Virus record (IMG/VR): IMGVR_UViG_3300007735_000801
Reading direction: 5' to 3' (one strand)
DNA length: 64,000 nucleotides
From: a virus
A program made the translations under genes and the position numbers. The stretch's first letter is position 1. Each line of letters opens with the position of its first letter. The notes beneath the pieces are model-generated. The model did no database searches and was not told the DNA's origin. It saw only the letters and a list, made by a program, of their open reading frames with translations. This document shows, piece after piece, positions 872 to 44,370 of this stretch.

Positions 872-2125
872 TTAGGTTGCTATGTACGTAAATGTAGCCG
901 ATCCTGCAGTAACACCAAACGACACTGTATTCAAGTTATTAGATTCGATAAACAATATTTCGCCACTACCCAGAGCGTAAGTACTATTTGTTGTACCATT
1001 TCCTTGAATATTAATATCAATTGCAGATTTGTTCTTTACCGTAATACCAGTTTTAAGAGTTTGTGAACTCAGAGTTACCGTATTACCAAGAGTCAGACCA
1101 AGAGTTCTGGTTCCTGTATAAACCGTGCTTGGGCGTGTAATGGTAGTAATCTGTGTCTGAACAACAGTTCCAGTAAGACCACCACCATTCATGGACTTAC
1201 TAATATTTTCTGTATTAGTAATCAATGAGCTTAACTTGGAATCTACAGTTAAAATATTTGTATTAACTGATTCTAGATTTACTGCAACTGTTCCGTCTAC
1301 CACAACCTTGTTGCTCAAAGCTCCAGCATCCGTTACAATGACTACTGGGATTGCTTTAGAGGCTCCTTGAGTACCTACTACACGAACTTCTGGACCAGCA
1401 GTTGCCCCAGCAATATAGAACGGAGACGATTGACTGACACCAACCACGGCACTTACGCTGATTGTGGCAGTGATACCAGCACCAATAATATTAACGTTTA
1501 ATGCGCCACCAGAAGATCCAAGAGAATTACCGCTGCCGTCTCTTAGCATCACAGGAATATATGTGCCTCCTGCGCTGTTGTAGATTGCAATAGTATCATA
1601 ATTTTTGTTGGATGGAGGCAGATAAGAAACCGACACTGTGCTTCCAGTAATTGATACACTGTCTGTTGCAAAAGCCAGTCTGCGACCACCAGTAATACCG
1701 ATAGGGTTGATCAAGGAGAATGTGCTTCCGCCGTAAATCGTGATACCATTTGGAATATTAACATTTCCAGTAATACCCAATAATACACCATTGGTTGTTC
1801 CTTGAACATTACCATTGATCTGTACTTGAGCATAGCTAGAATTGGTAGTACCGCTAATAACCAAAGGAACGGCGGTAGAGCCAGATAATCCGTTTATAAT
1901 CTTGAAATTACCAAGACCACCAACACTACCAGTGATTCCTATGGTGGCAGTGGCTAGTCTGATGTCTACGGGAAGTGGATTACTTGTGGTAACTCTGTTT
2001 GAGGCAGCAGTATCTCCCCAAGCAATCTTACTTACTTGAAAATGACTACTGTTTACGTAATCGGTGGCAATAGCAGCGGTAGTTCCTGTAACATCAACAA
2101 TTAGATTCGGGTCTGTATCGGGCAT
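872..2125 (-). CDS. Gly/Thr/Ser-rich hypothetical virion protein
   Basis: 417-aa ORF with GGAGA RBS; beta-strand-like composition with about 20 G-x-T motifs; no family recognised. Confidence 0.75.
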   Translation of the reverse strand: MPDTDPNLIVDVTGTTAAIATDYVNSSHFQVSKIAWGDTAASNRVTTSNPLPVDIRLATATIGITGSVGGLGNFKIINGLSGSTAVPLVISGTTNSSYAQVQINGNVQGTTNGVLLGITGNVNIPNGITIYGGSTFSLINPIGITGGRRLAFATDSVSITGSTVSVSYLPPSNKNYDTIAIYNSAGGTYIPVMLRDGSGNSLGSSGGALNVNIIGAGITATISVSAVVGVSQSSPFYIAGATAGPEVRVVGTQGASKAIPVVIVTDAGALSNKVVVDGTVAVNLESVNTNILTVDSKLSSLITNTENISKSMNGGGLTGTVVQTQITTITRPSTVYTGTRTLGLTLGNTVTLSSQTLKTGITVKNKSAIDINIQGNGTTNSTYALGSGEILFIESNNLNTVSFGVTAGSATFTYIAT

Positions 2126-2182
2126 TTATTTCTCCAAGTATTATTTGTATTATTCATGAAAGCTGTTATATATATGTGTACT

Positions 2183-2413
2183 ATGGTCCTATTTTTTGAT
2201 AATGAAACCCAAAATGATTTTTGTCGTCAGGTTGAGAAGTACGTAGAACAATGGAGTTCAACATATATAGATGCCGTCATCAGTGTATGTGAGTCCAAAG
2301 ATCTGCCTGTCGAAAGCGTAGCTAAATTTTTATCTAAGCCTATTGTGGAGAAAATCCAGCAAGAAGGCGAAAATTTGAATTTTCTACAAAAAACAACAAA
2401 ATTATTATTTTGA
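2183..2413 (+). CDS. gp33: Late-transcription coactivator gp33
   Basis: YIDAVISVCE...VESVAKFLSKPIVEKIQQEGENLNFL matches the gp33 pattern; lies upstream of gp32; start uncertain (2156/2174/2183). Confidence 0.85.
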   Translation: MVLFFDNETQNDFCRQVEKYVEQWSSTYIDAVISVCESKDLPVESVAKFLSKPIVEKIQQEGENLNFLQKTTKLLF

Positions 2414-2414
2414 C

Positions 2415-2442
2415 TTGACAACCTTGTTTTAGCCTGTATAAT
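2415..2442 (+). promoter_or_regulatory. Sigma70-type early promoter for gp32
   Basis: TTGACA (2415-2420), 16-nt spacer, TATAAT (2437-2442); then AAGGAG RBS and ATG at 2466. Confidence 0.85.
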
Positions 2443-2465
2443 ATTCTTACAAAAGGAGATACTAC

Positions 2466-6010: not shown

Positions 6011-6034
6011 AATCCCAACTATATATCTATACAA

Positions 6035-6814: not shown

Positions 6815-8617
6815 ATGTTTGAATATTTTCCTAAAATTCAATATAATTTTGACGGAATTACACAAACAGTAACCAATATATTCAAATCCGTCAATGTTAC
6901 AGTAGACCAACAAGATAATGTAACAACAAGCACCACAATCCCTGGAGAAAGACCAGACCAATTGTCAGCAAGATTGTTTAACCGAACTGATTACTTTTGG
7001 TCTTTATTTTTAACTAATGGCATTAAAAATCCATTAAGGGAATGGGCACAATCACAGGATAGTTATACGGCACAGATTGAAAAGGAATATGATGGCTGGT
7101 ATTATCAGTTTGCAAATACCTCTAATTATCTTCCAGGTGTTACTGCCTATCAAGATATTAGTAAAATCGATGCGTATCAGGGAGTAGATCTAACTGGCAT
7201 TAGTGTCGGAGATTTAATCATTTACGAAACAGGAACTGGACCATTTTCCGTTAAGTGCTTGGGTGCTGGTGGAGTTACTTCTTCTGCTGATTGCGGTAGT
7301 CCTCAATTCGGGCAAAGCCTAATACCAGATAATTTTAATAAACAACAAGACGTAGTTCAGGTTTCTGCTGGAGATTACTTTACAGCATGTCTAGATTCTA
7401 AAGGATACATCTATGTTTGGGGCAAAACTCCATCTTTAAGTTCTGCTAAATTTACTCAAAATGATCGTTTGTATTCATCTAAAGACGGCAGATATTCTTT
7501 CATAGATGCTACTGGAGAAAATCTTATAGCAGTTTTAGACGGATCATTAGTCTGTTTTGGTGGCTGTACTGCGTTCAATACTAACTATTCTGGTCAGACA
7601 GGAATAGTGAAAACTTCGTGGACTGCTCGTGGTGTTAGTGGTGGTGTTGCTATTAAATCTGATGGTACGGTAGTCGATTTTGGTTTAAATGGTCCTACTG
7701 GCGTTACCCTAAATGATATAGCATGTGGATACGAATTTTGTGTTGGTGTTTTAGGAAATACAAGAGGTGTTACGGTTTGGGGTAGTAACACCTATAATCA
7801 AAAATCTATTCCAGGCGTAACAGGGGTTACGGCTATTGCTGCTGGATTTGGTCATGCATTAGCAGTAACTGATGATGGTACTGGTTATGGTTGGGGATTA
7901 AATACTAATGGTCAAACCACAATTCCTTCTTCTGGTTATGCTTCTGTTTCTGCGGGATTTAGGCATTCTGCTGGGTTAAAAACTAACGGAAGCTTGGAAG
8001 TATGGGGCAGCATAACCACATACAGTAAAAATAGTGGTTGCACAGGAATAACACAAACAGTAAGTGCCACAGGATTAACAGGTGCCTTTTCTCGGATATC
8101 TTCAGGTAACGATCATATAGTACTCAAGGGCTCAGGAACAAATTACAAATATACTGGTGTTGTTGATTCGGTAGATCCTGTATACAAAAGAATCTTTGTA
8201 AAAGCTTACCAATTCACACAAGCAACGCCAATATTATTAGACGATCCTTCAGGAACTATTGTTTCTTTTTGGAGACTTAATACTAACGGTAGATATGGAG
8301 AAATAAAAACTATCCAGCATCAATTATTAACTATTGGAAAATATTTAGATTCTACCATTTATGTTGACCAAGCAGGTTTAATTTTAGATCCAGTTGCAGG
8401 AAATAATTGGCAATCTATTTATTTGGTGGATCACCAAACGCCAGACACTAATGAGTCATTTATAACCCCAAGAAAACAATTATTAGATATAGATCTATAC
8501 AACAAAACTCAAATTGATCATTTAAACAAAGATCAAATTGTGTTACTAAAAGAACAGATAGGTAATTCCTTACTTACGGATGATGTTATAAATATAAAAA
8601 CAAGTGAATTAATATGA
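6815..8617 (+). CDS. gp53: Baseplate wedge gp53 with inserted RCC1/BLIP-II repeats
   Basis: N-term YFPKIQY...GERPDQLSARLF..TDYFWSLFLTNGIKNPLREW is gp53/LysM-like. The middle carries RCC1-type repeats (VSAGDYFTACLDSKGYIYVWG; IAAGFGHALAVTDDGTGYGWGLNTNGQ; VSAGFRHSAGLKTNGSLEVWG). Confidence 0.82.
   Translation: MFEYFPKIQYNFDGITQTVTNIFKSVNVTVDQQDNVTTSTTIPGERPDQLSARLFNRTDYFWSLFLTNGIKNPLREWAQSQDSYTAQIEKEYDGWYYQFANTSNYLPGVTAYQDISKIDAYQGVDLTGISVGDLIIYETGTGPFSVKCLGAGGVTSSADCGSPQFGQSLIPDNFNKQQDVVQVSAGDYFTACLDSKGYIYVWGKTPSLSSAKFTQNDRLYSSKDGRYSFIDATGENLIAVLDGSLVCFGGCTAFNTNYSGQTGIVKTSWTARGVSGGVAIKSDGTVVDFGLNGPTGVTLNDIACGYEFCVGVLGNTRGVTVWGSNTYNQKSIPGVTGVTAIAAGFGHALAVTDDGTGYGWGLNTNGQTTIPSSGYASVSAGFRHSAGLKTNGSLEVWGSITTYSKNSGCTGITQTVSATGLTGAFSRISSGNDHIVLKGSGTNYKYTGVVDSVDPVYKRIFVKAYQFTQATPILLDDPSGTIVSFWRLNTNGRYGEIKTIQHQLLTIGKYLDSTIYVDQAGLILDPVAGNNWQSIYLVDHQTPDTNESFITPRKQLLDIDLYNKTQIDHLNKDQIVLLKEQIGNSLLTDDVINIKTSELI
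8587..8594 (+). promoter_or_regulatory. T4-type late promoter
   Basis: TATAAATA ending 19 nt before ATG 8614. Confidence 0.65.
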
Positions 8618-13850: not shown

Positions 13851-14939
13851 ATGTTTTTCTTATTTAATAAAAATATTCCGAATAAAAATTATGCGGTTAA
13901 TATTAATGTATCTGGAATAGATGCTGAAATAATCACAGCAAGTATTAGATCTACCGCTCAAGAGATTTATAATTTTTATACTCCAACTCAACAAATTACC
14001 ACATCCTGTCATTATCCGTTAAACATTGCAGAATTATTTCCGTATTGGTTGCAAAAAGAGAGTGCCAATACCACGAGTCTAATTACCCTAACTGAAACAT
14101 ACTACCAGTGGTTAAACTGTAACACGCAAGACATTAATGAGGTAAGCTTTCTTCGTTTAGAAGACCTTACAGACTTAGAACAAATGCCAGGGAATTATGT
14201 AAAGCATTTAGCCAACACCTATTTAAACGCTTTACCGTCTGAGTTTATTAATAGTGAAGATTATACTGAAGGTATTATTGATGAAAGTAAAGTAAGAAAT
14301 TTAATAGACAACGTAAAAGTCAACCTTTATGCTCGTAAAGGTACAGATGAAAGTTTTAAATTTGTAATAAATGAATTATTTGACATAGATCCTGACAGAA
14401 TTACAGTTTCTTATCCTAAGAAATACGTAATGCGTCTGAATAGTGGTCGATTTGACGGAATGTCTGATAATTTATCGGATATGACCGACAGTTATTTGAA
14501 TTATTCTGTTATTTATGATGCAAATAATCTGTGGCAAGATTATTCTTATGTAGTTAATGTGTCTGGATTGACTGCAGAAAGTTACGAAACCACAGTTCGA
14601 CCCCTATTACATCCAGCAGGAACCGTTGATTTTTATCAAACCAGACAAGACATTTTTAATAATTTACAGGATTCTATTGTTATTGGAAAAAATGAAATAC
14701 CAATTATAAAAAATTATCGAGGGTATACTCTTGGTTCTAGCGAGTCTCTTGCTGTCTGTTATGCTGGATTTACTTCTGCTCCAACATACACATTCCCAAC
14801 ATGGGATCAAGAAATTTATGATAAATACTATATTGGCATGACTTTTGGCATGATAAATATAGAAGACTTTCTATTGTTATCTCCGATATCAGGCTATACC
14901 TATGCAAACGAAACACGCAGCGTCACTACTTGCCCATAA
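13851..14939 (+). CDS. gp7: Baseplate wedge gp7-like (short)
   Basis: LYARKGTDESFKFVINELF and WQDYSYVV...VRPLLHPAG; follows gp6. Confidence 0.8.
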   Translation: MFFLFNKNIPNKNYAVNINVSGIDAEIITASIRSTAQEIYNFYTPTQQITTSCHYPLNIAELFPYWLQKESANTTSLITLTETYYQWLNCNTQDINEVSFLRLEDLTDLEQMPGNYVKHLANTYLNALPSEFINSEDYTEGIIDESKVRNLIDNVKVNLYARKGTDESFKFVINELFDIDPDRITVSYPKKYVMRLNSGRFDGMSDNLSDMTDSYLNYSVIYDANNLWQDYSYVVNVSGLTAESYETTVRPLLHPAGTVDFYQTRQDIFNNLQDSIVIGKNEIPIIKNYRGYTLGSSESLAVCYAGFTSAPTYTFPTWDQEIYDKYYIGMTFGMINIEDFLLLSPISGYTYANETRSVTTCP

Positions 14940-17547: not shown

Positions 17548-19932
17548 ATGCCAACGCCAATCACATCTCTAGCTACTACTGACACGTTTAATACGTGGTT
17601 TAACTCCACCAATACAGTTATAACTGCATTGAATGGTATTAGTATGTACAAAGGATTTGCTGGAGATGGTGTTAGTATCACTTACGATACATCTGGTAAC
17701 TATACATTTAGTCATTCAAATACGGTGACTACTGGAGTAACATTTAACGGAAGTGTTTTATTCAATGGCGCAGTTTCGTTTGCTGGTGCTGCTCCTTCAA
17801 TTTCTTCCACCACAATCAGTATTTCTCCTGCAGTCGCAGGCTTGACTTCTGGTAATATCGTAACTACACATCCTACGTTAGGATTGACTTTAGCAAAAGC
17901 AGATAGTGCAAGCACATCTGAAGTTATGGGTATTGTTGTAGCTCAATCTGCTTCTGCCACAACAGTCGCTGTTAGTGGATCAGTCAATAATACAGTATTC
18001 AGTAATACAATTAGTAATGCATTAGGAATTTCTGGTGCCACATTAACCACTGGACAAGCCTACTTCTTGAGTCCAACTGTGGCTGGTGGAATCACAACAA
18101 TTGAACCAAACACATTTGGTCATGTTTCTAAACCTATTTTGCTAGGTATTACAGGTAGTGCTGGTTCCATACTTCCGTATCGTGGCATCATTATTGAAGG
18201 TATTAGTGCTGGTATTACTGCGGAATTAGATAATAAAGTAATTGTTGAAGTAGATTTTAGTACTAATCCTGCTGGATTTACTACTAGTAATCAGGTTAAA
18301 GTAGGAGATACTTTTTGTGTTGTATACGATAACGGTGATTCGTTTGTTCAATTATTGAGTAATTACGGAAATTATAAACTTGCAGGAAAATTAAATTCCT
18401 CTTCTGGTATTAATTGTTTTGTTCCTGATATGTCTACTGGATTCAGCAATTCAATAGGTGATTTGCTTGGATCTAATTTTTTCGGTCTAGTTAGTAAGGT
18501 TATTACTACCACAGCAACAAAATATATTTTAGAAATTACTACTGTTGGTGGATCCTTTAATTGTAATATTGCTGATTTAGATTCTAGTTTTTATAGTTCG
18601 TCTACAGATACTGGTTCCTATTCTCTTTTTGTAGATACTACTTCAGGGTTAATGGGTCTTATTCCAAATTTATATTCTAACTCAATAGATTATAAGTTTT
18701 TAGACCTTATTAGATTAGATGCAAGTACTGCAAAAATAGTTCTAAGTAAAACACAGAATACCAGAGATCTTGGTACGTATGGTTCTTCTTCTGCATTTAC
18801 TAGTTTTGCTGCATTTGGTGGAGGTGGAGGATCAAATAGCGGAGAATATGATAATCTAATTCCTAATGGCACATTCAGTATTTGGCAGAGAAACGCAACA
18901 TCATTAACTGCTGGTAACTTAAACACATACAGTACACCAGTTGCTGATCGCTGGTTTGTTGTTAAAAATGGTATTACTGGAACAACTGCTTCTATTTCCA
19001 GACAAGAATTTTCTTCGGATCAAACCTCAGTTCCAGGATCTCCGTTATACTATGTTGATTGTAAGTTCCAGTACACACAACCAAGTAGTTTAGACAAACG
19101 ACCAAAACTAGAAAACATTCAGAAGGAAGCACGGCTTCTTCAGAATCAAAATGCTACTATTAATTTCTGGGCAAAGTCCACAATTGATGGATCTACTCTG
19201 GATGTAGTCTATAATCGATACAGAGACGCATACACCACTACTGCAGGCGTTACTACAGATCTAGCTAATCGTGTATTAGTTGGTACTGGTGGTGTAACTC
19301 TCACTACCTTCTGGTCGGAATATGTTTACACCTTCCCTGTCAGTACTTGGGGAACTACATTAGGAGCAACCCAAAGTGGTTGGTTTGCTGTAGGATTTGA
19401 ATTCCCAAATTCCACTACCACTATTAGTCTTGCACAAGTTCAATTAGACTTTAACGGAAACACTGGATCTGTATTTTATGTGAGTCCAACCGCCGAACTA
19501 GAGCGATGCAAACCTTATTATCAAAGAACTTATGATCTGGGACAAACTGCAGGATATGCTGGAAGTTCCACAAATAACGAAAAAGTATTGCAATTAGCAA
19601 ATCTAAATTCACAAACAATTTATTTTGTTGATTTCCCAGTAGAAATGGTCAGCAGTCCAACCATTTCCTTGTATGCACCAAACGGAATATTAGGTGATGC
19701 TTATAATATGAATTCAGGAAAAAATATGGCAAGTTCAGATGCTACAACAGTTTCGTATCCATGGACAACAACTACATTTACACGTGTCAGTAGTTCTTCA
19801 TCTTACGGAAATATTTCTGTTGGCTCTACTAGTAAAAAGGGAATGGAAATTTCCATACTTAATGGAGCAGCATCTTTGGATGCATTAAAGTTCCATTATG
19901 TTGCAGATTCAGATTTAAGTTTAAACGTATAA
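17548..19932 (+). CDS. Tail fibre/baseplate-attached structural protein
   Basis: N-term LATTDTFNTWFNSTN anchor motif; NLIPNGTFSIWQR...ADRW...ELERCKPYYQ carbohydrate-binding-like fibre domain. Confidence 0.7.
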   Translation: MPTPITSLATTDTFNTWFNSTNTVITALNGISMYKGFAGDGVSITYDTSGNYTFSHSNTVTTGVTFNGSVLFNGAVSFAGAAPSISSTTISISPAVAGLTSGNIVTTHPTLGLTLAKADSASTSEVMGIVVAQSASATTVAVSGSVNNTVFSNTISNALGISGATLTTGQAYFLSPTVAGGITTIEPNTFGHVSKPILLGITGSAGSILPYRGIIIEGISAGITAELDNKVIVEVDFSTNPAGFTTSNQVKVGDTFCVVYDNGDSFVQLLSNYGNYKLAGKLNSSSGINCFVPDMSTGFSNSIGDLLGSNFFGLVSKVITTTATKYILEITTVGGSFNCNIADLDSSFYSSSTDTGSYSLFVDTTSGLMGLIPNLYSNSIDYKFLDLIRLDASTAKIVLSKTQNTRDLGTYGSSSAFTSFAAFGGGGGSNSGEYDNLIPNGTFSIWQRNATSLTAGNLNTYSTPVADRWFVVKNGITGTTASISRQEFSSDQTSVPGSPLYYVDCKFQYTQPSSLDKRPKLENIQKEARLLQNQNATINFWAKSTIDGSTLDVVYNRYRDAYTTTAGVTTDLANRVLVGTGGVTLTTFWSEYVYTFPVSTWGTTLGATQSGWFAVGFEFPNSTTTISLAQVQLDFNGNTGSVFYVSPTAELERCKPYYQRTYDLGQTAGYAGSSTNNEKVLQLANLNSQTIYFVDFPVEMVSSPTISLYAPNGILGDAYNMNSGKNMASSDATTVSYPWTTTTFTRVSSSSSYGNISVGSTSKKGMEISILNGAASLDALKFHYVADSDLSLNV

Positions 19933-19941: not shown

Positions 19942-21075
19942 ATGGCTAATTCTTCCAGTTCACAAAATAGCAGAGTCTTTGCCCCATATGTTGTGTTGGC
20001 ACAAGATACTTCACGTCTTTTCATCACCATAAAGACAGGAGAAGGTTATAGTATTGCTAGCGGTATTACTGCTGGAGATGTTATTCGATTTAATCCTCAA
20101 TATGCTGCAGCGGGTATAACTGGACAATATGTTAAATCACAAGCTAATACCGACGAAAATGCTGAAGTTGTTGGTATTGTTGAAAGCAAAGCAAATAATA
20201 TTTACACCGTTGTTACACATGGTTCTATTTTATATCCTGCTAGTCGTTTGACTGGAATTTGCGGAGCTGGTGGTGGTCTTGACATTCTATTTTTAGATTA
20301 TAATGTTGCTGGTGGATTGACAGGAACTATCGATCTTAGCACTACTGGGGAAAAGATTATTAAACCAGTGTTTCAGATAGCTCCTCATAGCACATATAAT
20401 GGATTAGTAGTAAACTACATTGGCTATAAGACAGGAAATGCAGCTACAGTATCATCAAATCCAACAGGTGCTGGAAATGTTCAATATGTTAATGCTAGCG
20501 TTACTCCTGCCAGTAATTGGTTGGAAGTTAGTGTAGACCGAACAGTTCAGGTTGCAATGTTTTCTGATTTGTATGGAGTTTACGGAAAAACAAATGGTCC
20601 TTTCACTGAAAAGATTACTGTGACATCTACACCATCCAGTGCATTAATTGGTAGAACAATATACCAATTAAGTGGTGGTAGTCAAATAAACACAGGTACA
20701 ATTACGAGTGTTGATACTGGTAACAAATACATTTACGCACAAAAAGTTTCAAATGCATCATTGATGACTGTTCCTGGAACAGTCTATGTTGCTACTAGCG
20801 GATCTGGGCAATTATTTTCAGCAACAGCATCAGAAGTTTATGAATTTACTGTTCCTGCTGTTGTTAGTAGTAATGTGATAACTCAAAATTCATCTCCATT
20901 AATTCCTTATGTAGAAACAACTAACACATCTACCGTTAGTGTGCCTGGAGCATTAAGTGTTACATCAATGAGCGTATCTGGAATTTTAGAATTAGGTGAC
21001 ATAACAGATGTAGAAACTCGCATTAATACTATGCAATCCCAAATTGATACTATAAATGCTAGGTTAAACCTCTAA
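19942..21075 (+). CDS. Tail fibre-like structural protein
   Basis: Shares the (K)SQAN..ENAEVVGIV and FL...VAGGLT domain with the previous gene; coiled-coil-like C-terminus. Confidence 0.65.
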   Translation: MANSSSSQNSRVFAPYVVLAQDTSRLFITIKTGEGYSIASGITAGDVIRFNPQYAAAGITGQYVKSQANTDENAEVVGIVESKANNIYTVVTHGSILYPASRLTGICGAGGGLDILFLDYNVAGGLTGTIDLSTTGEKIIKPVFQIAPHSTYNGLVVNYIGYKTGNAATVSSNPTGAGNVQYVNASVTPASNWLEVSVDRTVQVAMFSDLYGVYGKTNGPFTEKITVTSTPSSALIGRTIYQLSGGSQINTGTITSVDTGNKYIYAQKVSNASLMTVPGTVYVATSGSGQLFSATASEVYEFTVPAVVSSNVITQNSSPLIPYVETTNTSTVSVPGALSVTSMSVSGILELGDITDVETRINTMQSQIDTINARLNL

Positions 21076-25400: not shown

Positions 25401-28400
25401 ATGCCAACAATTATAGGAAACAGCACAATATTTGGTATAGGTGGTAATACTGGATCTACTGGTAATACTGGTAATCCTGGTCCTACTGGTGCTAGAGGTA
25501 ATCTTGGTTCTACTGCTGGTCCTACTGGCGGTACTGCAGTTTATATTAGTACCGTTACATTCGATTCTGCCAGAAACAGATTAACGTTTGTTGGATCTAA
25601 CGGAACCAATCTTTCTGTTTTGGAAGGATTTACTGGATCTACTGGCTATTATTCTGATTCCAGAGGAATATCTGCCACTATAGCTGCTGGGTATCTTTCT
25701 GGTTTGTCAGGCATTATTGGCGGAAATACTTTTCAATTTTTAGGAATTTGCGGAGCTGGAACCTTAATATCATCTCTATCTACAGACAAAACAGAAATTT
25801 TAATAACTCCAAATGTTTTGGCTAGTTCCCCTTCTTACGGATCCACTCTACCAAATAATTATATTGCTTACACTACTTCTTCTTTTTCCGCAACCACAAC
25901 TAAAATTGGTGTTACAGGCACAAACTCTATTTTATCTTTTGGTCTAACAGCTGATAATGGAGCCACTGGTAATTCTGTAAAAGTATTTACTGATTTCAAT
26001 GAAATTTATTTTGGTATAACTGGAGGAATTACTTTAGGATTTAGTGGAGGAGTTTCTTTAAATTCTGTTGTAACTGGATATGATGCTGGTGGATTGGTTT
26101 TAGATTTAACCAAGTACACCACATACAAAACTACTGCACCAATTGGCATTACGGCATTTACTTCAAGTAGCGATACAGGAGCAATTCAAGCTTATACTTT
26201 CTTTATTGAGGGTGCTGAAGTCTGGAATTTTCCAAAGAATGTGTATTTTGAAAATACTAATTCAGGAATTTGTGGTTACGGATTCTTGGACGGAATGAAT
26301 ATTGTTCACTTGTGGAGCGATAATGCAGGACTTACATTTAATGCTGCATTTGTTGCTCGTGGTATAGGTGAAGCAAATAGCACAGTATATACTTCTCAGA
26401 TTGGTTCTTGTTGTTATTCTGCTGGCACCACTTGTTTAGACTATACGACTCTAAGAGACTGTAATCTTCTTGGTGGTAATTTTAATCCCTTAAAGCCATG
26501 CTCACAAACTTGTATAGAAATTGGATCTTGTTGCAGCGAAAATACTTGTTACGAAAATACACCAAAAAGTGTTTGTGAGGAAATTGCAGGAACATATAGT
26601 ATAGGACCTAATTGCACTAGTGCTGTGTGCGGAGTAAAAACTTATGATTTAATAATTACAGAATTAGCAGATCCTTTGATATTAAAAACTGTAAATAAAT
26701 TATTTACTGCTACAATTCGAACCACAGATACCGATCCTGTTTTTGTTAGCTTTCCTTCTGGTGTTGTATCAAACACCAGTGAAAGTTTTAATGCATTTTA
26801 TGCAATATTGCCAAATCAAACTATTATTAGTGATATGACAGGGTTGACTAACGGAACCACTCTTGGGTTTTATTTTGACAACACAAATACTCCAACTATT
26901 TCTGGAGCTTTAGGAACACTTCCTATATTGTTGCAAGACACAAATAGAGACACACAAAAAGTAAAAAATATAGATGTTGTTTATAGACCAGAAGGATCTG
27001 GGTGTGGTGGTTGTGTTAGTGCATTTCAGATTGCTGGAGGATTTTCGACTGTTCGATATTGTAATGATTGTTATACGATAAATTCATCAGGTCTTCAACA
27101 ATTTAGTCGAGTACAAACTCAAAGTGGAACAATTAATTTTTGTATTGCTAGTTCTGGATGTGGGTTTACTCTATCAGTAAATTGTATTAATGTTGATGAA
27201 GTTATAGATTTAGACGACTGCAAAATAACTGGTGCTAATATTGACGATAATTCCTTATTATGTCCTCATAGAGAATATAAATTTTTAGATAATAATTGTG
27301 TTGGATGTGAAAATTCAGCTAAACCGTATTTGTCTTTAGCTCATACTCATTGTAAGGGAGCAACTTTAGATGGTGGAGTAACATCTGGTTATTATTATAC
27401 TTATAATTTTAATAATGAAATGTACGGATATTTAAATGATGCAGGAATTACTGCTATTGCTGATATAAGCAAAATAGAAAAAGGTTTAAAGTCTGCAATA
27501 TCAAACAGCAAAAAAAATAATAAACCATTACTTTACAATAAAGACAACATGCTAACTGGTATTACTTATACTAATTATGCCACCTGTTGTCCAGTAAATA
27601 ATACGCCAGATATTGTTTTAGATTTTTCTGCTGGTAGAAGAATTTTTGTGTATCAAATACAAGTTGTAAGAAGAACTGGTTGGAATGGTCATGTGGAAGG
27701 TGAATGGGGTACTGGTGGTTTAGGTATGAGTACTAAAGGATCTCCATGCAACGGTGTAGATGGAATGTGGGATTATTATTATGCACTGGTATCTACTGAA
27801 GTAGATGCTACAGACAGTATTATGCCACCACCAATTAATAGTTGCATGACTATAATACCTTTTGCAGAAATAGCAGAAGGAATAATAAAAAGAGATTGTA
27901 CGTTTGAATCCATAGTAAATGTTAGTAATTTGTTCTATTTTAATTTTCTCGGAGAAATAGTAAACGGCACAAATGACGTTAAATTAAATAATGGTAAACT
28001 TGTATGGAATAATAATCCTACTTGGTTTAGTGACTATAGATTTTTCCAAAGTGAGGTTTTTCAAGGTTATCCTGCATCAGGTTTGAATTATTATTCTCAT
28101 ATTTTTCATAAAACAATTGGCAATTTTACAACAACCCTTAAAAGAAATAATGAATTTCGTAGATATTTTTGGGGTCCTGGATACTGTAATGGTGGTGATT
28201 TTGGTACAGTTTTATGTTCTAATACTGTACAAAACAGATGTATATTAAGTTCATCTATTGGATTTTCTAATAGTATAAAAACTAATCCCGATATTCTAGA
28301 TAATTTGTGTTATTTTGGTTATTCTCATGCAATAGAACTGTTTGTGGCTTCTGATCCAGATACTGGTATTCCGATTGAAATTACCCCTACGTTATACGAC

Positions 28401-29156
28401 ATACAACCAAACGGAAGCTGGATTAAAAATACTACTGCTTGGTTATTTGTTTCTAGATTAGATACTATATTTGATGGTAATGAAGGTGATTGTATGGAGT
28501 GTTTAGGAAGAGGAATGCCAGCAATAAGATCAGGAACAACATATCCGTTATCTCAAAATATAAATATAGATAGTTTATTTTATGTTTATTATAATGGAGA
28601 TGTTAATCTTGATGCAAAGCCTATACAAATAACAGAAAAATATACTACACATTTAGACCCTGCTTCGGTAACCATACCAGAATTAGATTTTACACACACA
28701 TATTCCATTATTAATAATAACATAACTTTAAATTTGGAATTATCTGAATTTGTAAAATTAGGAGCCTGGGAAATAGACAAATACGAATGGGTATATTGGT
28801 GGGAATTACCTAATGGTCAGTATTCCTCAATAATTACATGGAGTGAATTGGGTCAAGATTCATTTGAATTGTATCAGAGTACTGCTTCTATGGATAGCAC
28901 TATGTTAAAAGTATACAACGAAATTGAAGGTCAAAAACTTCTCAGATATGTTGTAGTTCATGTTTTATTCACCGCAAGAATGATACAAAGTACTTATAGA
29001 GGACAAGAAGTTAATAAAATAATTAAGATTTATCTAGATACTCCTAGTTCTTTGGTACCACAATCAACCATACAAAATAAAAAAATAAATAACCAATGCG
29101 TTGCCATAGATTGTTCTGGTATTGAATTTTATTGTTCTGGGTTAAAGGACTGCTAA
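25401..29156 (+). CDS. Collagen-like, Cys-rich fibre protein 3 (1251 aa)
   Basis: GNTGSTGNTGNPGPTG repeat; two GSCC units at about 26403-26630; many further Cys; C-terminus CVAIDCSGIEFYCSGLKDC. Confidence 0.65.
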   Translation: MPTIIGNSTIFGIGGNTGSTGNTGNPGPTGARGNLGSTAGPTGGTAVYISTVTFDSARNRLTFVGSNGTNLSVLEGFTGSTGYYSDSRGISATIAAGYLSGLSGIIGGNTFQFLGICGAGTLISSLSTDKTEILITPNVLASSPSYGSTLPNNYIAYTTSSFSATTTKIGVTGTNSILSFGLTADNGATGNSVKVFTDFNEIYFGITGGITLGFSGGVSLNSVVTGYDAGGLVLDLTKYTTYKTTAPIGITAFTSSSDTGAIQAYTFFIEGAEVWNFPKNVYFENTNSGICGYGFLDGMNIVHLWSDNAGLTFNAAFVARGIGEANSTVYTSQIGSCCYSAGTTCLDYTTLRDCNLLGGNFNPLKPCSQTCIEIGSCCSENTCYENTPKSVCEEIAGTYSIGPNCTSAVCGVKTYDLIITELADPLILKTVNKLFTATIRTTDTDPVFVSFPSGVVSNTSESFNAFYAILPNQTIISDMTGLTNGTTLGFYFDNTNTPTISGALGTLPILLQDTNRDTQKVKNIDVVYRPEGSGCGGCVSAFQIAGGFSTVRYCNDCYTINSSGLQQFSRVQTQSGTINFCIASSGCGFTLSVNCINVDEVIDLDDCKITGANIDDNSLLCPHREYKFLDNNCVGCENSAKPYLSLAHTHCKGATLDGGVTSGYYYTYNFNNEMYGYLNDAGITAIADISKIEKGLKSAISNSKKNNKPLLYNKDNMLTGITYTNYATCCPVNNTPDIVLDFSAGRRIFVYQIQVVRRTGWNGHVEGEWGTGGLGMSTKGSPCNGVDGMWDYYYALVSTEVDATDSIMPPPINSCMTIIPFAEIAEGIIKRDCTFESIVNVSNLFYFNFLGEIVNGTNDVKLNNGKLVWNNNPTWFSDYRFFQSEVFQGYPASGLNYYSHIFHKTIGNFTTTLKRNNEFRRYFWGPGYCNGGDFGTVLCSNTVQNRCILSSSIGFSNSIKTNPDILDNLCYFGYSHAIELFVASDPDTGIPIEITPTLYDIQPNGSWIKNTTAWLFVSRLDTIFDGNEGDCMECLGRGMPAIRSGTTYPLSQNINIDSLFYVYYNGDVNLDAKPIQITEKYTTHLDPASVTIPELDFTHTYSIINNNITLNLELSEFVKLGAWEIDKYEWVYWWELPNGQYSSIITWSELGQDSFELYQSTASMDSTMLKVYNEIEGQKLLRYVVVHVLFTARMIQSTYRGQEVNKIIKIYLDTPSSLVPQSTIQNKKINNQCVAIDCSGIEFYCSGLKDC

Positions 29157-31837: not shown

Positions 31838-31838
31838 A

Positions 31839-32774
31839 ATGGCAACGAATCCATATTTTAAAAAGGATTATTCTGGAGAACAGGATGTCCTTGAAGATCT
31901 TACAATTGAACTCATTAAAACTATGGGTCGAGATATGTATTATATTCCTAGAAATATTTTAGATATGGACATAATATTTGGAGAAGGTCTTCAAGTCAAT
32001 TACAAAAATGGTATTCCTTTAGAAATGTACATTGATTCTGTTTCTGGATTTGATGGTCAGGGAGATATTGCTAGTAAATTTGGTATCGAAATTAGAGACA
32101 ACATTATGTTGACTCTTTCCAAGAAACGATTTAAGGAAGAAGTACAAACTAGATTTGTTAGTATAACCAGACCACGAGAAGGCGATTTAATTTATTTTCC
32201 TTTAGCAAAAGCTATATTTGAAATTAATTTTGTTGAACACGAAAATCCATTTTATCAATTTGGAAAATTATTTTCATACAAATTAACCTGTGAACTCTTC
32301 ACTTATAATCAAGAAGAAGTTACAACAGGAACTACAGAAATTGATAATGTTGTAAATCAAAATCAAGAATTTTTTACACTATTATCTCTATTACCAACAG
32401 TATCTGGACAAACTCAGGGATTATATACTGGAGAAAAGGTGTATCAGGTCAATGGTGTTACTGGTAGCGGAGCAACATTATCGAATGCTACTTGGACTGG
32501 TTATATTGCGTATCCTGGCACTACAGGACTTGCTTATGTTAGTGCTACTAGTGGTAATATATTAAATTCAGCAACATTATCTTATACTATTAGGGGTGAT
32601 TCTAGTAATTTGGAATTCTATGTTATATCTAAACAAACTGGAGTTACGTTAGCAATTGTTAATGATGAGGATAGAAGTATACAAGGAGATAATGCTGATA
32701 TTTCTTTAGAATCAAAAATTAAAGGTTTAATAAATTATACCGAAACCGATCCTTTTTCAGAAGGTAAATATTAA
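31839..32774 (+). CDS. gp14: Neck protein gp14
   Basis: EQDVLEDLTIE.IK..G.D.YYIPR, SKFGIEIRD, RPREGDLIYFP, FEINFVEHENPFYQ, DPFSE. Confidence 0.95.
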   Translation: MATNPYFKKDYSGEQDVLEDLTIELIKTMGRDMYYIPRNILDMDIIFGEGLQVNYKNGIPLEMYIDSVSGFDGQGDIASKFGIEIRDNIMLTLSKKRFKEEVQTRFVSITRPREGDLIYFPLAKAIFEINFVEHENPFYQFGKLFSYKLTCELFTYNQEEVTTGTTEIDNVVNQNQEFFTLLSLLPTVSGQTQGLYTGEKVYQVNGVTGSGATLSNATWTGYIAYPGTTGLAYVSATSGNILNSATLSYTIRGDSSNLEFYVISKQTGVTLAIVNDEDRSIQGDNADISLESKIKGLINYTETDPFSEGKY

Positions 32775-33460
32775 TGTTTACTTATTATAAAAACGATTCA
32801 GTTCGAAAATTGGTTATTGGTTTTGGTAATTTATTTAATGGTATTCAAATTGAACAGACCAATACCGATAATAGTAAACGAATATTTAATGTTCCATTAT
32901 CTTATGCTTCTAAAGAAAAATTTATTAAGCGTTTAACCGAACATAGTTCGATTAGTGAAAATACTCGTATTGAAATTGGTGTTCCACAGATGTCATTTGA
33001 ATTGGTTGGATTAGTCTATGATCCTGCTCGTCGAATGAATAAGTTGTCTACAATGACACAGGTTAGTGCTGACCAAAATTCACTTGCTGCATCTTTTACA
33101 GAAACTCCTTATAATTTTACATTTAACTTGTACGTATACACCAGAAATATTGAAGAAAATTTGCAAATATTAGAACAAATATTACCGTATTTTTCTCCAG
33201 AATTTGTTATCTCTTTGAATATGACTGATATGCATCAGGCTGTTGATGTTCCTATAGTTCTTGCTCAAACAAATCTAACACAGGAATATGAGGGAGATTT
33301 TTCTACTAGACGAAATATTGTATCAACATATCAATTTACTGCTAAATCGTATGTGTACGGAAACACTAATCAGAATTTTGCTACAACCTTGAGAAATGTC
33401 AATATAAATACTAGTGATAATCCGTTTACCTTTAGTGATTCTTATGGTCTAACTGCATGA
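32774..33460 (+). CDS. gp15: Tail sheath stabiliser/terminator gp15
   Basis: RKLVIGFGNLFN, VPLSYASKEKF, PQMSFE, LQILEQILPYFSPEF, YEGDF. Confidence 0.95.
   Translation: MFTYYKNDSVRKLVIGFGNLFNGIQIEQTNTDNSKRIFNVPLSYASKEKFIKRLTEHSSISENTRIEIGVPQMSFELVGLVYDPARRMNKLSTMTQVSADQNSLAASFTETPYNFTFNLYVYTRNIEENLQILEQILPYFSPEFVISLNMTDMHQAVDVPIVLAQTNLTQEYEGDFSTRRNIVSTYQFTAKSYVYGNTNQNFATTLRNVNINTSDNPFTFSDSYGLTA
33403..33410 (+). promoter_or_regulatory. Possible late promoter for gp16-17
   Basis: TATAAATA in the 3' end of gp15, 46 nt before the gp16 start. Confidence 0.55.
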
Positions 33461-35624: not shown

Positions 35625-35699
35625 ATGTCGCAATTATCAAATAACTTACAACTTGAATTTGTTTATTATCAATACTCTAATCAAAAGGAATATCGCTAA
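35625..35699 (+). CDS. 24-aa leader ORF coupled to gp18 (MSQLSNNLQLEFVYYQYSNQKEYR)
   Basis: Strong AGGAG RBS after a late promoter; its TAA overlaps the gp18 ATG (TAATG). Confidence 0.45.
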   Translation: MSQLSNNLQLEFVYYQYSNQKEYR

Positions 35700-36865
35700 T
35701 GGCAACACCTGAATCTGATTCTCCTCTTATTGCTGGCGTAGTATCTTTTAATGGACTAATTCCTATATTTGGGAATACTGGTGCTAACGGAACCACAGCC
35801 GAAACTAGTATTGGTTTAATGACAATTCCTTCATATAATGATTGGATTGCTCGTTTAAATTCCAGTCCATATCAGACCACAGGTCCTACAGGTGCTTGGG
35901 TTAATGAGTGGTGGGCTGTATATAATTATCTACAATACGGTGGAATTTGTTTGGTTGGTGGAACAGGAACTACTGGAGATTATTATGGTGGAACTGGAGG
36001 AGTTTTAACTGCTTCTAACACCCCATTACACAACAAGAGCATAAGTACTTTTGACGTAGTATTCGATGCAGGAAATACGTATTCTGCTCAAGCAGCCTAT
36101 AGTATTGCTACCACGAGACGAGATTGTGTTGCTTATATTGGAAATTACCAGAGTATTACTGGACTTCCTTTAGGTGCAACTTATTCAGGTGAAACTGCAG
36201 ATTTTGGTGTGACTCAAGGTACGACTGGTACAGAGTATGTGGCTTTTATTGCTGGTCGAAAGAAATTTTTAAGTGATGTTGGACAGTCTACTGGCGTAGT
36301 GTTTACTGCGAATTTAAGTCCAGATGCTGCTGGTTGTGCTGCTCGTACCGCAGCATCCACTTCGTTGTGGGTTCCACCTGCAGGAAAAATTCGTGGCAGA
36401 ATTCTTAGTGTAATTAACTTGCAACAAAATTTCACTGTATCAGATGCCGATTATTTGTATGCTGGTAATGTAAATCCAGTGAAAACTTTTCCAGGAGAAG
36501 GTACGTTTCTGATGGGTAATAAAACATCATATTCTAGTACTAGTGGATTAGGGTATATAAATATAGTAGCAATGATTGCTTATTTAAAGAAACAATTATT
36601 AATTATTGCTAATTCGCTTTTATTTGAAGCAAATACTGTGGAGTTAAGACAACAGTTTCTTTCTCGTGCCACTCCAATATTAGAATCTATTAAATCTGGT
36701 AACGGCATCTCAGCATACACAATTGTTTCAGATTCAAGTAATAATACGCCAACAACAATGGCAGCAAATAAATTGATTGTTGATATTACTATAAAACCAA
36801 CTTCATCTGTTCAAACAATAAGTATCACTGTTGTTAATAGTGATACCTCCGAAGTCTTAATATAA
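35699..36865 (+). CDS. gp18: Tail sheath protein gp18 (compact, 388 aa)
   Basis: NYLQYGG, RRDCVA, WVPPAG.IRG, LYAGNVNPV..FPGEGT.LMGNKT, LFEAN, IKPT. Confidence 0.9.
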   Translation: MATPESDSPLIAGVVSFNGLIPIFGNTGANGTTAETSIGLMTIPSYNDWIARLNSSPYQTTGPTGAWVNEWWAVYNYLQYGGICLVGGTGTTGDYYGGTGGVLTASNTPLHNKSISTFDVVFDAGNTYSAQAAYSIATTRRDCVAYIGNYQSITGLPLGATYSGETADFGVTQGTTGTEYVAFIAGRKKFLSDVGQSTGVVFTANLSPDAAGCAARTAASTSLWVPPAGKIRGRILSVINLQQNFTVSDADYLYAGNVNPVKTFPGEGTFLMGNKTSYSSTSGLGYINIVAMIAYLKKQLLIIANSLLFEANTVELRQQFLSRATPILESIKSGNGISAYTIVSDSSNNTPTTMAANKLIVDITIKPTSSVQTISITVVNSDTSEVLI

Positions 36866-36879: not shown

Positions 36880-37440
36880 ATGGCAACTAATCATTCAATC
36901 TCTGATTTTATCAATGGTTTTGGTGGCGGAACACGTCAAAATCGTTTTCTTATAACGGGAGATATTGGTAGCGACAGTAGTCCTAAAACTACTAATTTTA
37001 CTAACAATGTGTTTTATGTAAGAACTGCAACTCTCCCTAATTCCACATTAGGAGGAATTCCTATAAATTATCGAGGAAGAACTGTGGTATATCCTGGTGA
37101 ACGAGTTTATAGTCCTTGGCAAATAACGGTATTAGACGATAAGCCTTCAGGAAAAACAAAATTATTTGAATCATTTCACGCTTGGAGTAATGGTATAAAC
37201 AATCATTTACTTAATACCACATCATCATCAGGACTTGATCCAAGCAATCATTTTGCTAATACTAATTGGACCGTAGAGCAACTAGATACTAATGGTGGTA
37301 CTACACTTACAGGTAGAAAGTTTACTTTATTTAATTGCTGGCCCCAAACGGTAGGTGATTTAGCCCTAGATATGGGAGCAGATAATACTCTTGCTAGTTT
37401 TGCGGTTACTATTTTTTATAGTCATTATTCGATTACTTAA
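36880..37440 (+). CDS. gp19: Tail tube protein gp19
   Basis: GGTRQNRF, YRGRTVVYPGER.Y..W.ITVLDD, VEQLD, LFNCWP. Confidence 0.93.
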   Translation: MATNHSISDFINGFGGGTRQNRFLITGDIGSDSSPKTTNFTNNVFYVRTATLPNSTLGGIPINYRGRTVVYPGERVYSPWQITVLDDKPSGKTKLFESFHAWSNGINNHLLNTTSSSGLDPSNHFANTNWTVEQLDTNGGTTLTGRKFTLFNCWPQTVGDLALDMGADNTLASFAVTIFYSHYSIT

Positions 37441-41963: not shown

Positions 41964-42010
41964 ATAATTTACTCGTTTTTAACATTTTTACTACTAGAAA
42001 TATTGAATAA

Positions 42011-42018
42011 TATAAATA
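42011..42018 (+). promoter_or_regulatory. T4-type late promoter for gp22-23
   Basis: Intergenic TATAAATA, followed by AAGGA RBS. Confidence 0.9.
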
Positions 42019-42040
42019 ACAAGGATTAAGGAACTAATAT

Positions 42041-42958
42041 ATGCAACCACAAAATAACAATGTCGCTCAACCGTCTAATGTATTGATTGATGCACGTACC
42101 TATACTCAAGATGCTTCTGGTAAGGGAGTAGTTCTGGGTACCGAAGATACAAGCTGGCTTAATGGTCGTGCTCAACAACTTCAAGGTGCTAATCGTCAAC
42201 CATTCAGTAGTGGTGTTGATGCGCCTCCTCCACAAGGAGCACAGGCTGCAATGAACGAACAACTTCAGAACCTTTTCTCTGGTGAAAACCTCTCCGAAGA
42301 TTTCATGGGCAAAGCTTCCGTTGTATTTGAAGCTGCACTCAATGAGCGTACCGAAGCTATTCGTCAGAGTGTTCTTTCTGAGAGTGCCGCTCTTGTTGAA
42401 CAAGAAGTTGGCAATGCAGTAAATGAACTGGCTACTCGTTTAGACGAGTATCTCAGTTACGCTGTTGATGAATGGATGAAGGAAAACAAGTTGGCTGTTG
42501 AAAGCGGTATTCGTACAGAAATTTCCGAAAGCTTTATCAATGGTCTCAAGTCTTTGTTTGAAACACACTACATTGAAGTTCCAGAAAGCAAGCAAGATAT
42601 TCTTGAAGACCTGTTCTCTGATAATCAAGAACTTGAAACAAGTCTTAATGAACAAATTCAAACCAATATGCGTATCAAGCAAGAATTAGAACAAACTGCT
42701 GCTCGTGGCATTTTCATGGAAGCAGTTTCCGATCTAACACAAGTTGATGCAGAGCGTCTCGCAAGTCTCGCAAACAGCATTGCATATAACAGTCCACAAG
42801 AATTCCACAACAAGCTTGTGGTTCTTAAAGAAAATTATCTCAAAGCAGCACCAGTTGCCGCAAGAGAACCAGAAACATTGACAGAACAACGAATCGCTCC
42901 ACGTGGAAACGATCCGATGGCTGCTTATGTAAACGTACTTGGTCGCTTAAGTCACTAA
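42041..42958 (+). CDS. gp22: Prohead scaffold gp22
   Basis: LSEDF..KASVVFEAAL, LDEYLSY..DEWMKENKLAVESGIRTEI.ESFI.GLK.LF..HYIEVPE, MAAYV. Confidence 0.96.
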   Translation: MQPQNNNVAQPSNVLIDARTYTQDASGKGVVLGTEDTSWLNGRAQQLQGANRQPFSSGVDAPPPQGAQAAMNEQLQNLFSGENLSEDFMGKASVVFEAALNERTEAIRQSVLSESAALVEQEVGNAVNELATRLDEYLSYAVDEWMKENKLAVESGIRTEISESFINGLKSLFETHYIEVPESKQDILEDLFSDNQELETSLNEQIQTNMRIKQELEQTAARGIFMEAVSDLTQVDAERLASLANSIAYNSPQEFHNKLVVLKENYLKAAPVAAREPETLTEQRIAPRGNDPMAAYVNVLGRLSH

Positions 42959-42996
42959 ATTAAATCTAACATTATACTCAAAAGGAGATAAACAAA

Positions 42997-44370
42997 ATGG
43001 ATTTCAGTCAAACATCACCATACGACACTTTACTAGAAAAGTGGGAACCACTCATCAATCACGAGTCAATTCCTTCGATTCAAGACTCTTACAAGCGTAA
43101 GGTCACTGCTGTTCTCTTGGAGAATCAAGAAAACGCATTGCGTCAACAATACATCACTGAAGTTTCAGCCAATAACATGGGTGGTAACTTCTCAAACGCT
43201 CAGGTCGGATCTGCAGGCGGTCTCGCAGGTTATGATCCAATCTTGATTAGCTTGGTTCGTCGTTCCATGCCAAACTTGATGGCTTACGACATTGCAGGCG
43301 TTCAGCCAATGAGTGCTCCAACAGGACTCATCTTTGCAATGCGCAGTAAGTACGATAGTCAAACTGGTAGGGAAGCTCTCTTCCAAGAATCGTTTGCTCA
43401 GTTCGGTGGTAGTGGTAACACTTCTACTGGTGCTGCAACAATGGCAAGCCAAGGCGTTATTCCTTACGGAGCAACCGCTGGTGCTGCTGGCAACGTTAGA
43501 GGTACTACTTTTGCAATAGGTAGTTTCCGTGGCATGTTAACCTCAGATGGTGAAGCTCTTGGTGGTGCAACTAAGACTTTCAACGAAATGGCGTTCAGCA
43601 TTGAACGTATTGCTGTTGAAGCTCGTACTCGTGCTCTCAAGGCTGAATACACCACTGAATTGGCTCAAGATTTGAAGGCTGTACACGGTTTGGATGCTGA
43701 GAGTGAACTTGCTAATATTCTTAGCAGCGAAATTCTCAACGAAATCAATCGTGAATTGATGTACACCCTCTATCGTGTAGCCAAGACTGGTGCTGCTCAA
43801 GTCGATTTGACTACTGCTGGTATTTACGATCTCAACACGGATTCAGATGGTCGCTGGAGCGCAGAACGCTTCCGTGGTCTCATGTTCCAAATTGAACGTG
43901 AAGCAAATCAGATCGCCAAGGAAACTCGTCGTGGTAAGGGCAACTTTGTTGTCTGCTCCTCAGACGTAGCTTCTGCTTTGGCGATGGGTGGTTTCCTCAA
44001 CGTAAGCCCTGCACTAAACGTGCAACTCGAAGTTGATGACACTGGCAATACTTTTGCTGGTATCCTCAATGGCAAGTTCAAGGTCTACATTGATCCATAT
44101 GCTGCAACTGGTATTAACTTCTGCATGGTTGGTTATCGTGGCGCAAGCCCATACGATGCTGGCGTGTTCTACTGCCCATACGTTCCTCTCCAAATGGTAA
44201 GAGCCGTTGATCAGAATACGTTCCAACCAAAGATTGGTTTCAAGACTCGTTACGGTATGGTAGCAAATCCTTTCTCGGAAAACACAAGCATTGATGCTGT
44301 TGGACAGAATCAATACTATCGTATCTTCCGTGTAGATAACCTCCATGGTAACACAGGTTACGGTTCATAA
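42997..44370 (+). CDS. gp23: Major capsid protein gp23
   Basis: TAVLLENQE, LISLVRRSMPNLMAYDI.GVQPM, RALKAEYT.ELAQDLKAVHGLDAE, FYCPYVPL, FQPKIGFKTRYG. Confidence 0.99.
   Translation: MDFSQTSPYDTLLEKWEPLINHESIPSIQDSYKRKVTAVLLENQENALRQQYITEVSANNMGGNFSNAQVGSAGGLAGYDPILISLVRRSMPNLMAYDIAGVQPMSAPTGLIFAMRSKYDSQTGREALFQESFAQFGGSGNTSTGAATMASQGVIPYGATAGAAGNVRGTTFAIGSFRGMLTSDGEALGGATKTFNEMAFSIERIAVEARTRALKAEYTTELAQDLKAVHGLDAESELANILSSEILNEINRELMYTLYRVAKTGAAQVDLTTAGIYDLNTDSDGRWSAERFRGLMFQIEREANQIAKETRRGKGNFVVCSSDVASALAMGGFLNVSPALNVQLEVDDTGNTFAGILNGKFKVYIDPYAATGINFCMVGYRGASPYDAGVFYCPYVPLQMVRAVDQNTFQPKIGFKTRYGMVANPFSENTSIDAVGQNQYYRIFRVDNLHGNTGYGS

Follow-up and report, generated by a model that had tools for sequence, protein, structure and literature searches.

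Enrichment of a G-x-T motif in the tail proteins of an uncultured T4-like phage lineage, and its possible role as an O-glycosylation sequon

The DNA analysed here (IMG/VR record IMGVR_UViG_3300007735_000801; the whole 64,000-nucleotide stretch is called the window below) carries the core genes for structure and replication of a T4-like myovirus, and this report concerns the tripeptide motif G-x-T, which an original prediction made from the sequence had proposed as an O-glycosylation site of its virion proteins. In order, the genes are gp32, those of the baseplate (with a fused hub gene and a gp53 carrying an RCC1 insert among them), six fibre-type genes (17548-30396), the neck genes gp13, gp14 and gp15, and those for terminase, sheath, tube, portal, protease, scaffold and capsid, followed by UvsY/UvsW, gp46/47, RNase H, clamp, clamp loader and RegA, and by a sugar island extending to the window end. 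Matches to PHROG families revealed a collinear T4-like structural module (gp53-gp6, gp13/14/15, gp16/17, gp18, gp19, gp20, gp21, gp22 and gp23). The capsid protein was 55-58% identical to those of cyano-, pelagi- and Methylophilales myophages, equally to all three groups, which indicates, at the level of sequence, that the window belongs to a separate uncultured T4-like lineage.

In the eight G/T-rich virion proteins of the window, taken as one pool of 5239 aa, G-x-T was observed 154 times against 60.4 expected (observed/expected ratio, O/E, 2.55; z ~12). Ranked against the full set of 400 residue pairs, at spacings of 0 to 2, this pair came first in the same proteins, and the control pairs were at chance (G-T 0.99, G-x-x-T 0.83, G-x-S 0.93 and T-x-G 1.03). 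Wider spacings of Thr were not raised (G-x3-T 1.05, G-x5-T 0.80), and Thr alone was favoured after G-x (Val 1.04, Ile 0.73, Ser at the control value above). The excess noted in the original prediction therefore survived correction for composition, and since it persisted under global as well as 30-aa local shuffles, an artefact of composition was ruled out. A DNA-level motif or codon bias was ruled out likewise, as codon use within G-x-T was ordinary. The pure GPT collagen runs described earlier were present but short (4+2 and 4+3 triplets) and contributed little; tandem (G-x-T)n runs made up 36 of the 154 sites, and O/E was still 2.21 when they were masked, so that collagen-like runs as the sole source of the excess were ruled out as well. 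No protein of the window matched the Pfam collagen triple-helix family (PF01391), the longest runs being of 4-7 triplets. A single duplicated fibre domain was also considered as the source; BLAST among the G-x-T-rich proteins detected only one shared segment, a Cys-rich linker, remote homology being possible. This segment, the sole paralogy detected among these proteins, is common to the fibres encoded at 22462-25374 (aa 260-367) and 25401-29156 (aa 307-408), with 36% identity (E=7e-10).

By protein class, O/E was 2.27 for fibres and peripheral proteins (P=1e-17), 2.01 for neck and tail and 1.53 for the baseplate; the head module (0.96), replication proteins (0.61) and glycan island (0.50) were unenriched, and the rarity of the motif seen by eye in gp32, gp44, gp46, gp20 and gp22 was borne out by counting. 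The six fibre-type genes, correctly said to contain many sites, had 19, 5, 24, 32, 27 and 5 of them. The four richest (all on the plus strand) encode a 794-aa fibre matching no Pfam or PHROG family (17548..19932; 19 vs 9.6 expected), a 457-aa fibre with N-terminal (GPT)4 and (GPT)2 runs (21075..22448; 24 vs 7.2, or 16/5.6 with the runs masked), a 970-aa fibre (22462..25374; 32 vs 10.1) and a 1251-aa fibre (25401..29156; 27 vs 13.3, concentrated in the first 350 aa). In the 970-aa fibre, an N-terminal run, (GPT)4-GGT-GTT-GAT, is followed by a Cys-rich linker and then by a globular, enzyme-like domain at the C-terminus, which alone had 12/4.4 sites, several of them invariant. This C-terminal domain (23659-25371) had no Pfam match; nine homologues were found, some of them stand-alone proteins of 540-590 aa, and an AlphaFold2 (AF2) model of it gave a pLDDT of 41 and no usable fold.

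Besides the fibres, and again on the plus strand, the motif was enriched in a baseplate wedge protein that resembles gp53 and has an RCC1-type propeller inserted (6815..8617; PHROG, and Pfam RCC1_2 and Phage_gp53; 16 vs 6.8 expected), in a baseplate-region protein (13851..14939; 5 vs 1.4, all within the C-terminal third), in neck proteins gp14 and gp15 (31839..33460; PHROG; 6/2.5 and 2/0.8), in the 388-aa tail sheath (35699..36865; 11 vs 4.7, all within residues 25-176) and in the tail tube (36880..37440; 5 vs 2.4). The sheath sites G25/T27 and G62/T64 were invariant in 16 clade sequences, so the claim that the motif clusters in variable segments has to be qualified, some sheath sites being invariant core positions. 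It was also noticed that this sheath is short compared with the 660-800 aa in T4, HTVC008M, Melnitz and S-SSM7, most of the usual outer insertion domains being missing. In the neck and tail genes (5579-6217, 31037-33460, 35699-37440 and 44412-44945), G-x-S was depleted (3 observed vs 9.6 expected) and G-x-T doubled. A large G-rich gene between the head protease and the scaffold (40509-41963), used as an internal-head control on an assignment made from gene position alone, was G-x-T-poor (2/2.6), as was its homologue in the relative REL1 (58249-60651, 800 aa; 1/5.8).

The 417-aa protein at the start of the window (872..2125, minus strand), which belongs to no known family and is fibre-like, contained exactly 20 sites, in agreement with the earlier count of about 20, against 7.3 expected (shuffle p<0.0005). 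All 89 of its 89 homologues were enriched (pooled O/E 1.98). About seven sites were invariant down to 33% identity, the others turning over while the total stayed at 13-16, and replacement of Thr by Ser amounted to only 10%. The AF2 monomer showed an unfolded N-terminal region of 280 aa, a helix at 284-314 and a C-terminal beta domain, of which the last 80 residues alone were confident; in this confident domain, G-x-T lay at loop-strand junctions. When modelled as a homotrimer, the protein reached an ipSAE of 0.46, compared with 0.00 for the best control, a mark that 20 of 30 solved homo-pairs attain, as does 1 of 23 proteins solved as a single chain; contacts agreed by at least 43% between runs and partner pLDDT was at least 59. 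The 417-aa protein looks like a trimeric fibre, and the three-copy model supports its self-association.

For comparison across genomes, the clade comprised the window and four IMG/VR relatives, REL1 (L068-L069), REL2 (L075-L076), G006 and G007, and the outgroup seven T4-like genomes (T4, HTVC008M, Melnitz, S-SSM7, S-PRM1, G008 and G010). In G/T-rich open reading frames (ORFs), O/E was 2.29 in the window and 1.59-1.89 in its relatives, compared with 0.95-1.21 in the outgroup. Along 96 gp13-anchored loci, O/E fell from 2.27 (gp13 identity >=90%) to 1.13 (<=43%), the single distant outlier being a true collagen protein. A general property of T4-like fibres was ruled out by the seven outgroup genomes together with 60 distant loci. 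Orthologues of sheath, tube, gp14 and gp15 showed 1.7-2.8 within the clade vs 0.8-1.4 outside (for gp14/gp15, 2.0-2.8 vs 0.8-1.1), and those of portal, terminase and gp13 showed no G-x-T enrichment. A 421-aa protein of REL1 that matches Pfam Collagen (97446-98711, equivalent to L069:17446-18711; 20% Gly), located beside a G-x-T-rich giant, had only 1 G-x-T vs 4.0 expected; collagen-like sequence in this clade is therefore not automatically Thr-using.

The glycan island follows regA and was compared over 55618-64000 in the window, 74247-89227 in REL1 and 48762-63845 in REL2. At its head are a GT-A Nucleotid_trans-like glycosyltransferase (55618-56298) and a GT10-like glycosyltransferase of the fucosyltransferase type (56274-57140), both on the plus strand and kept in all relatives. 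The GT10 C-terminal nucleotide-sugar-binding domain was recognised in the latter (PF00852, 30.8 bits with a cut-off of 23.9, residues 127-237 only), and among PDB matches it aligned with H. pylori FucT at E=2e-5 over 54 residues. The strain-variable part (57128..63762, plus strand) had Pfam matches to GT25, NAD-epimerase/dehydratase, sugar C-methyltransferase, GT2, DUF707, HAD phosphatase, a weak FkbM-type methyltransferase, sugar-1-P nucleotidyltransferase and cupin, and is followed by the 5′ end of a weak GT2-like gene that is cut by the window end (63775..64000, plus strand). The island position, the first two glycosyltransferases and the last gene, described below, were kept among relatives, and the genes between them were swapped: one of REL1 and REL2 had DegT aminotransferase, PglD-like acetyltransferase, GT17 and DUF5672 as replacements, the other UDP-galactopyranose mutase, GT47, GT92 and others. 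Judging from gene content, this swapping is a serotype-like pattern, similar to that of O-antigen loci, in a phage. No transmembrane segment, scored as a hydrophobic 19-residue stretch, was present in any of the 47 island proteins of the window, REL1 and REL2, and these included no membrane flippase or transferase acting at the periplasmic face as in Gtr-type clusters for host lipopolysaccharide (LPS), soluble enzymes acting on cytoplasmic lipid-linked intermediates being possible. GT25, GT8 and GT1 were tried as clade markers and were absent or non-discriminating. DNA glycosylation via hydroxymethyl-pyrimidines was set aside as no thymidylate-synthase-type protein (PF00303) was found in three clade genomes, which is weak evidence given that they are 80-86% complete.

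The last gene of the island encodes a glycosyltransferase domain of family GT2 followed by tetratricopeptide repeats (GT2+TPR). The GT2-domain search gave a match in four of the four large clade genomes (REL1, REL2, G006 and G007) and in none of the seven outgroups. The proteins are of 412-425 aa, with 50-78% identity within the clade, and have the features of a soluble GT-A enzyme with a DxD motif fused to TPR (Pfam GT2 at 46-48 bits, TPR matches weak). In the phage studied the gene lies outside the window: contig L199 was 97.8% identical to window positions 61569-64000 by BLAST, and continued after the weak GT2-like gene with three genes and then GT2+TPR (10001-11239 of L199), about 2.45 kb past window position 64000; an exact 39-mer from the window end had no match among viral contigs. 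Profile comparison gave matches to GmaR (E=7e-15), the O-linked N-acetylglucosamine (O-GlcNAc) transferase of Listeria flagellin, and to SunS and ThuS (2e-9 and 1.5e-8), the IVKNE, DTGSTD and DAD(D/E) motifs being in register. Among relatives of known structure these three match best, the helical domain of ThuS aligns too, and all three glycosylate proteins or peptides rather than lipids or polysaccharides; unlike the present case, their acceptors follow no G-x-T rule, SunS and ThuS modify Cys, and identity is low beyond the first 100-230 residues. In REL1 (where the gene occupies 87983-89227) and REL2, GT2+TPR was located just upstream of G-x-T-rich proteins of 2513 and 2041 aa (77/38 and 44/21.6 sites, respectively), a single small gene separating them. 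Homologues of GT2+TPR occur in more than 500 IMG/VR contigs. When GT2+TPR served as the anchor in 76 more viral contigs, the neighbouring G/T-rich ORFs had a median O/E of 1.71 vs 1.02 at outgroup loci (p=7e-9).

A known counterpart is SgtA of C. difficile, a GT-A+TPR enzyme encoded beside BclA3 that adds O-GlcNAc to Thr in the GPT repeats of BclA3 and accepts Ser in vitro (PMC7157674). Compared by architecture only, GT2+TPR resembles the SgtA/BclA3 system, and that of BclA in Bacillus anthracis, in having GT-A (GT2) followed by TPR and perhaps, from the gene neighbours in REL1 and REL2, in the nearness of its gene to a G-x-T-rich fibrous surface protein; the systems differ in that the acceptor there is a long tandem collagen repeat on the spore, whereas here the sites are mostly isolated and lie in beta-rich phage tail proteins. 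The unrelated jumbo phage Tunturi_5 was found to have a homologue of GT2+TPR (37% identity) 3.7 kb from a (GPT/GAT)n tail fibre, the sole G-x-T-rich protein of that genome (79/30.1, P=1e-13; 61 of the 79 sites in tandem). By analogy with BclA and BclA3, GT2+TPR might then glycosylate only the collagen-like (G-x-T)n runs of fibre N-termini and of the giants, the dispersed sites being structural. The tandem nature of the known GPT precedent, the composition of the Tunturi_5 fibre and the (GPT)n runs at two fibre N-termini of the window fit such a mixed arrangement, but it does not account for the excess left after the runs are masked, nor for the near absence of G-x-T from the Collagen protein of REL1, and we consider it unlikely.

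Taken together, these comparisons suggest that Thr of G-x-T in tail, neck, baseplate and fibre proteins may be the acceptor for a phage-encoded cytoplasmic O-glycosylation, a proposal to which we give appreciable weight, slightly more than to its nearest rival, though short of an even chance. GT2+TPR would act on the virion proteins, with G-x-T as its site. Late in infection, this soluble enzyme would bind virion proteins before or during fibre assembly and add the first sugar to Thr of G-x-T; other soluble transferases of the island (the two conserved ones at 55618-57140 and the strain-variable set) would extend it with nucleotide sugars made by the island's own enzymes, and the tail apparatus, but not the capsid shell, would end up with glycans specific to the strain. 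The fuller proposal, that the tail apparatus in its entirety, from fibres and baseplate rim to sheath surface and neck, is glycosylated at G-x-T by the SgtA/GmaR-like GT2+TPR and that the island builds differing glycans amounting to 'glycan serotypes', is more tentative, and should be read as possible rather than probable. The action of GT2+TPR on these acceptors is a prediction. An O-glycosylation sequon would explain why the motif is so sharp, why it recurs in unrelated folds but only in one clade and in tail-pathway proteins, and why a protein-type transferase is present. Since G-x-T is spread over at least eight proteins lacking detectable paralogy, including the RCC1 propeller, the enzyme-like domain, sheath and neck, a single fibre fold is not an easy explanation. 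With respect to the original prediction, which took G-x-T as the acceptor for the glycan cluster at 55660-64000, a clade-restricted candidate enzyme was indeed found, but the best initiating candidate lies outside that stretch. When the co-occurrence of motif and glycosyltransferases, a check that it had suggested, was followed across genomes, GT2+TPR went with the motif, but the sugar clusters of S-SSM7 and S-PRM1 go without a G-x-T excess; among the genomes compared, no motif-rich relative lacking glycosylation genes was found.

Several observations weigh against a sequon. The excess is real, but the tube is enriched about 1.8-fold in the clade though the sheath covers it, and the exposed capsid protein (42997..44370, plus strand; 6/3.0) is no richer than its outgroup orthologues (17/11.9). 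With the head module at chance, a coat extending from capsid to fibres, as first proposed, is not supported; any coat would be on the tail. Where Gly is conserved throughout T4-like phages, the clade showed no significant gain of Thr at +2 (8.0% vs 5.4%, p=0.31), so the excess belongs to segments and families specific to the clade. O-glycosites do not usually hold their position as many of these sites do, invariant down to 33% identity, and Ser, which SgtA takes in vitro, is not favoured here (G-x-S at chance, 0.87-0.97). The residue x is hydrophobic in 50% of isolated sites, charged residues are avoided and hydrophobics alternate downstream, and one conserved site of the enzyme-like domain falls within a D-G-A-T-I-W strand motif. 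On the enzyme side, S-SSM7 and S-PRM1 carry sugar-nucleotide and glycosyltransferase or glycosyltransferase-like genes, with a GT10-like homologue of 38% identity in S-SSM7; a distance of 30-60 kb separates GT2+TPR from most of the window's G-x-T-rich genes; and around distant homologues, in huge phages and Tunturi-like contigs, no G-x-T-rich ORFs were found, so that enzyme and motif are not linked there. Moreover, motif and enzyme are both traits of a single clade, and their co-occurrence thus counts as about one evolutionary event.

Many of these points would follow if the motif were purely structural, with Gly in a tight turn or G1-type bulge and Thr as the outward residue opening a strand, a habit of beta-rich trimeric fibre and decoration domains, and if the island altered the host envelope independently. 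Such turn-plus-bulge starts of beta-hairpins are well known, as in ubiquitin residues 10-12, where Gly in the turn is followed by one residue and by Thr opening the strand. The motif had mostly the form G-[IVL/P/S/T]-T-[G/A], and isolated sites read N-x-x-G-[IVL]-T-[AGL] with hydrophobics alternating downstream, a turn-to-strand signature in which Thr is the first outward residue, similar to the context of those hairpins. The loop-strand positions in the C-terminal domain of the 417-aa protein, the invariant sites of its family, of the sheath and of the enzyme-like domain, the scarcity of Ser in place of Thr and the enrichment of the covered tube all agree with a structural role. In the RCC1-containing protein, the RCC1 share of the signal falls inside RCC1-type repeats, and bacterial RCC1-like repeats often read G-Q-T at that position. 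Fibres of other phages also have their own signature pairs, e.g. GxxT at 1.50 in S-SSM7. As for the island, clusters of glycosyltransferase and deoxy-sugar genes in hypervariable regions of marine T4-like cyano- and pelagimyophages have been read as modifiers of host LPS or O-chains (PMC7029224), and such clusters exist in phages without the motif; unlike the clade, those genomes have neither a G-x-T excess nor GT2+TPR. However, a structural role leaves unexplained why one sharp tripeptide should recur in at least eight non-paralogous families of differing fold within a single clade. Hairpins of this kind occur in all beta proteins, but other T4-like phages have an O/E of ~1.1. Nor is there an excess of Thr at the next outward positions or tolerance of Val and Ile in its place, as the counts at wider spacings and after G-x showed, and the occurrence of a protein-type GT2+TPR only in this clade, beside G-x-T-rich giants, is not accounted for. 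We take a purely structural motif to be a serious possibility, without regarding it as the probable one.

G-x-T could also be read by something other than a glycosyltransferase, such as an enzyme for another Thr modification or a chaperone for tail and fibre assembly. The signal is confined to proteins of the tail assembly pathway, including the covered tube, and is missing from the head, and the small protein encoded after GT2+TPR is LtfC-like, with a weak match (E=0.0017, below the cut-off). Against such a reader, the window showed no candidate for a kinase or another modifying enzyme, and we know of no chaperone that reads such a motif; we consider this improbable.

To our knowledge, only a handful of phages have documented virion glycosylation, none of them with a known linear acceptor motif. 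If G-x-T is indeed a sequon, phages would have their first described sequon-directed glycoproteome; the glycan islands of environmental T4-like phages, by default read as host-LPS modifiers, would need another look, and tail glycans that vary between strains would newly enter into host recognition, the stability of the particle and its escape from grazers or defence systems. Otherwise, G-x-T would remain a clean marker for a fibre-building style, so far undescribed, of a large phage clade. With a motif that can be counted and a candidate enzyme that can be named, the question is open to test. Mycobacteriophages encode glycosyltransferases that glycosylate their structural proteins in the cytoplasm (Freeman et al. 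2023, as cited in PMC12619734), and in those siphoviruses the glycans are placed at the C-termini of capsid and tail-tube subunits; here the phage is a myovirus, its capsid is not enriched and a linear motif is proposed. It was noticed that the capsid protein has a clade-specific C-terminal extension, ending in H-G-N-T-G-[YF] within the last seven codons of the gene, in the window, REL1 and REL2 and missing in four outgroups, which recalls the C-terminal glycosites reported for mycobacteriophage capsids.

Upstream of the island, a T4-type late-promoter-like motif, TATAAATA, was found at 55195..55202 (plus strand), 45 nt ahead of regA, which precedes the glycan island. No other copy lies outside the structural module; REL1 has the motif at the same place, and in REL2 more copies occur within the island. 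The window has ten copies (8587 ... 55195), all on the plus strand, six of which lie 27-115 nt upstream of a start codon; as 9.25 copies are expected by chance, their placement alone is informative. Among the baseplate genes, the fused hub gene is a single ORF on the minus strand (4092-4985) that matches both a baseplate hub (phrog_150) and a hub assembly catalyst (phrog_634), a fusion of the gp26/gp51 type.

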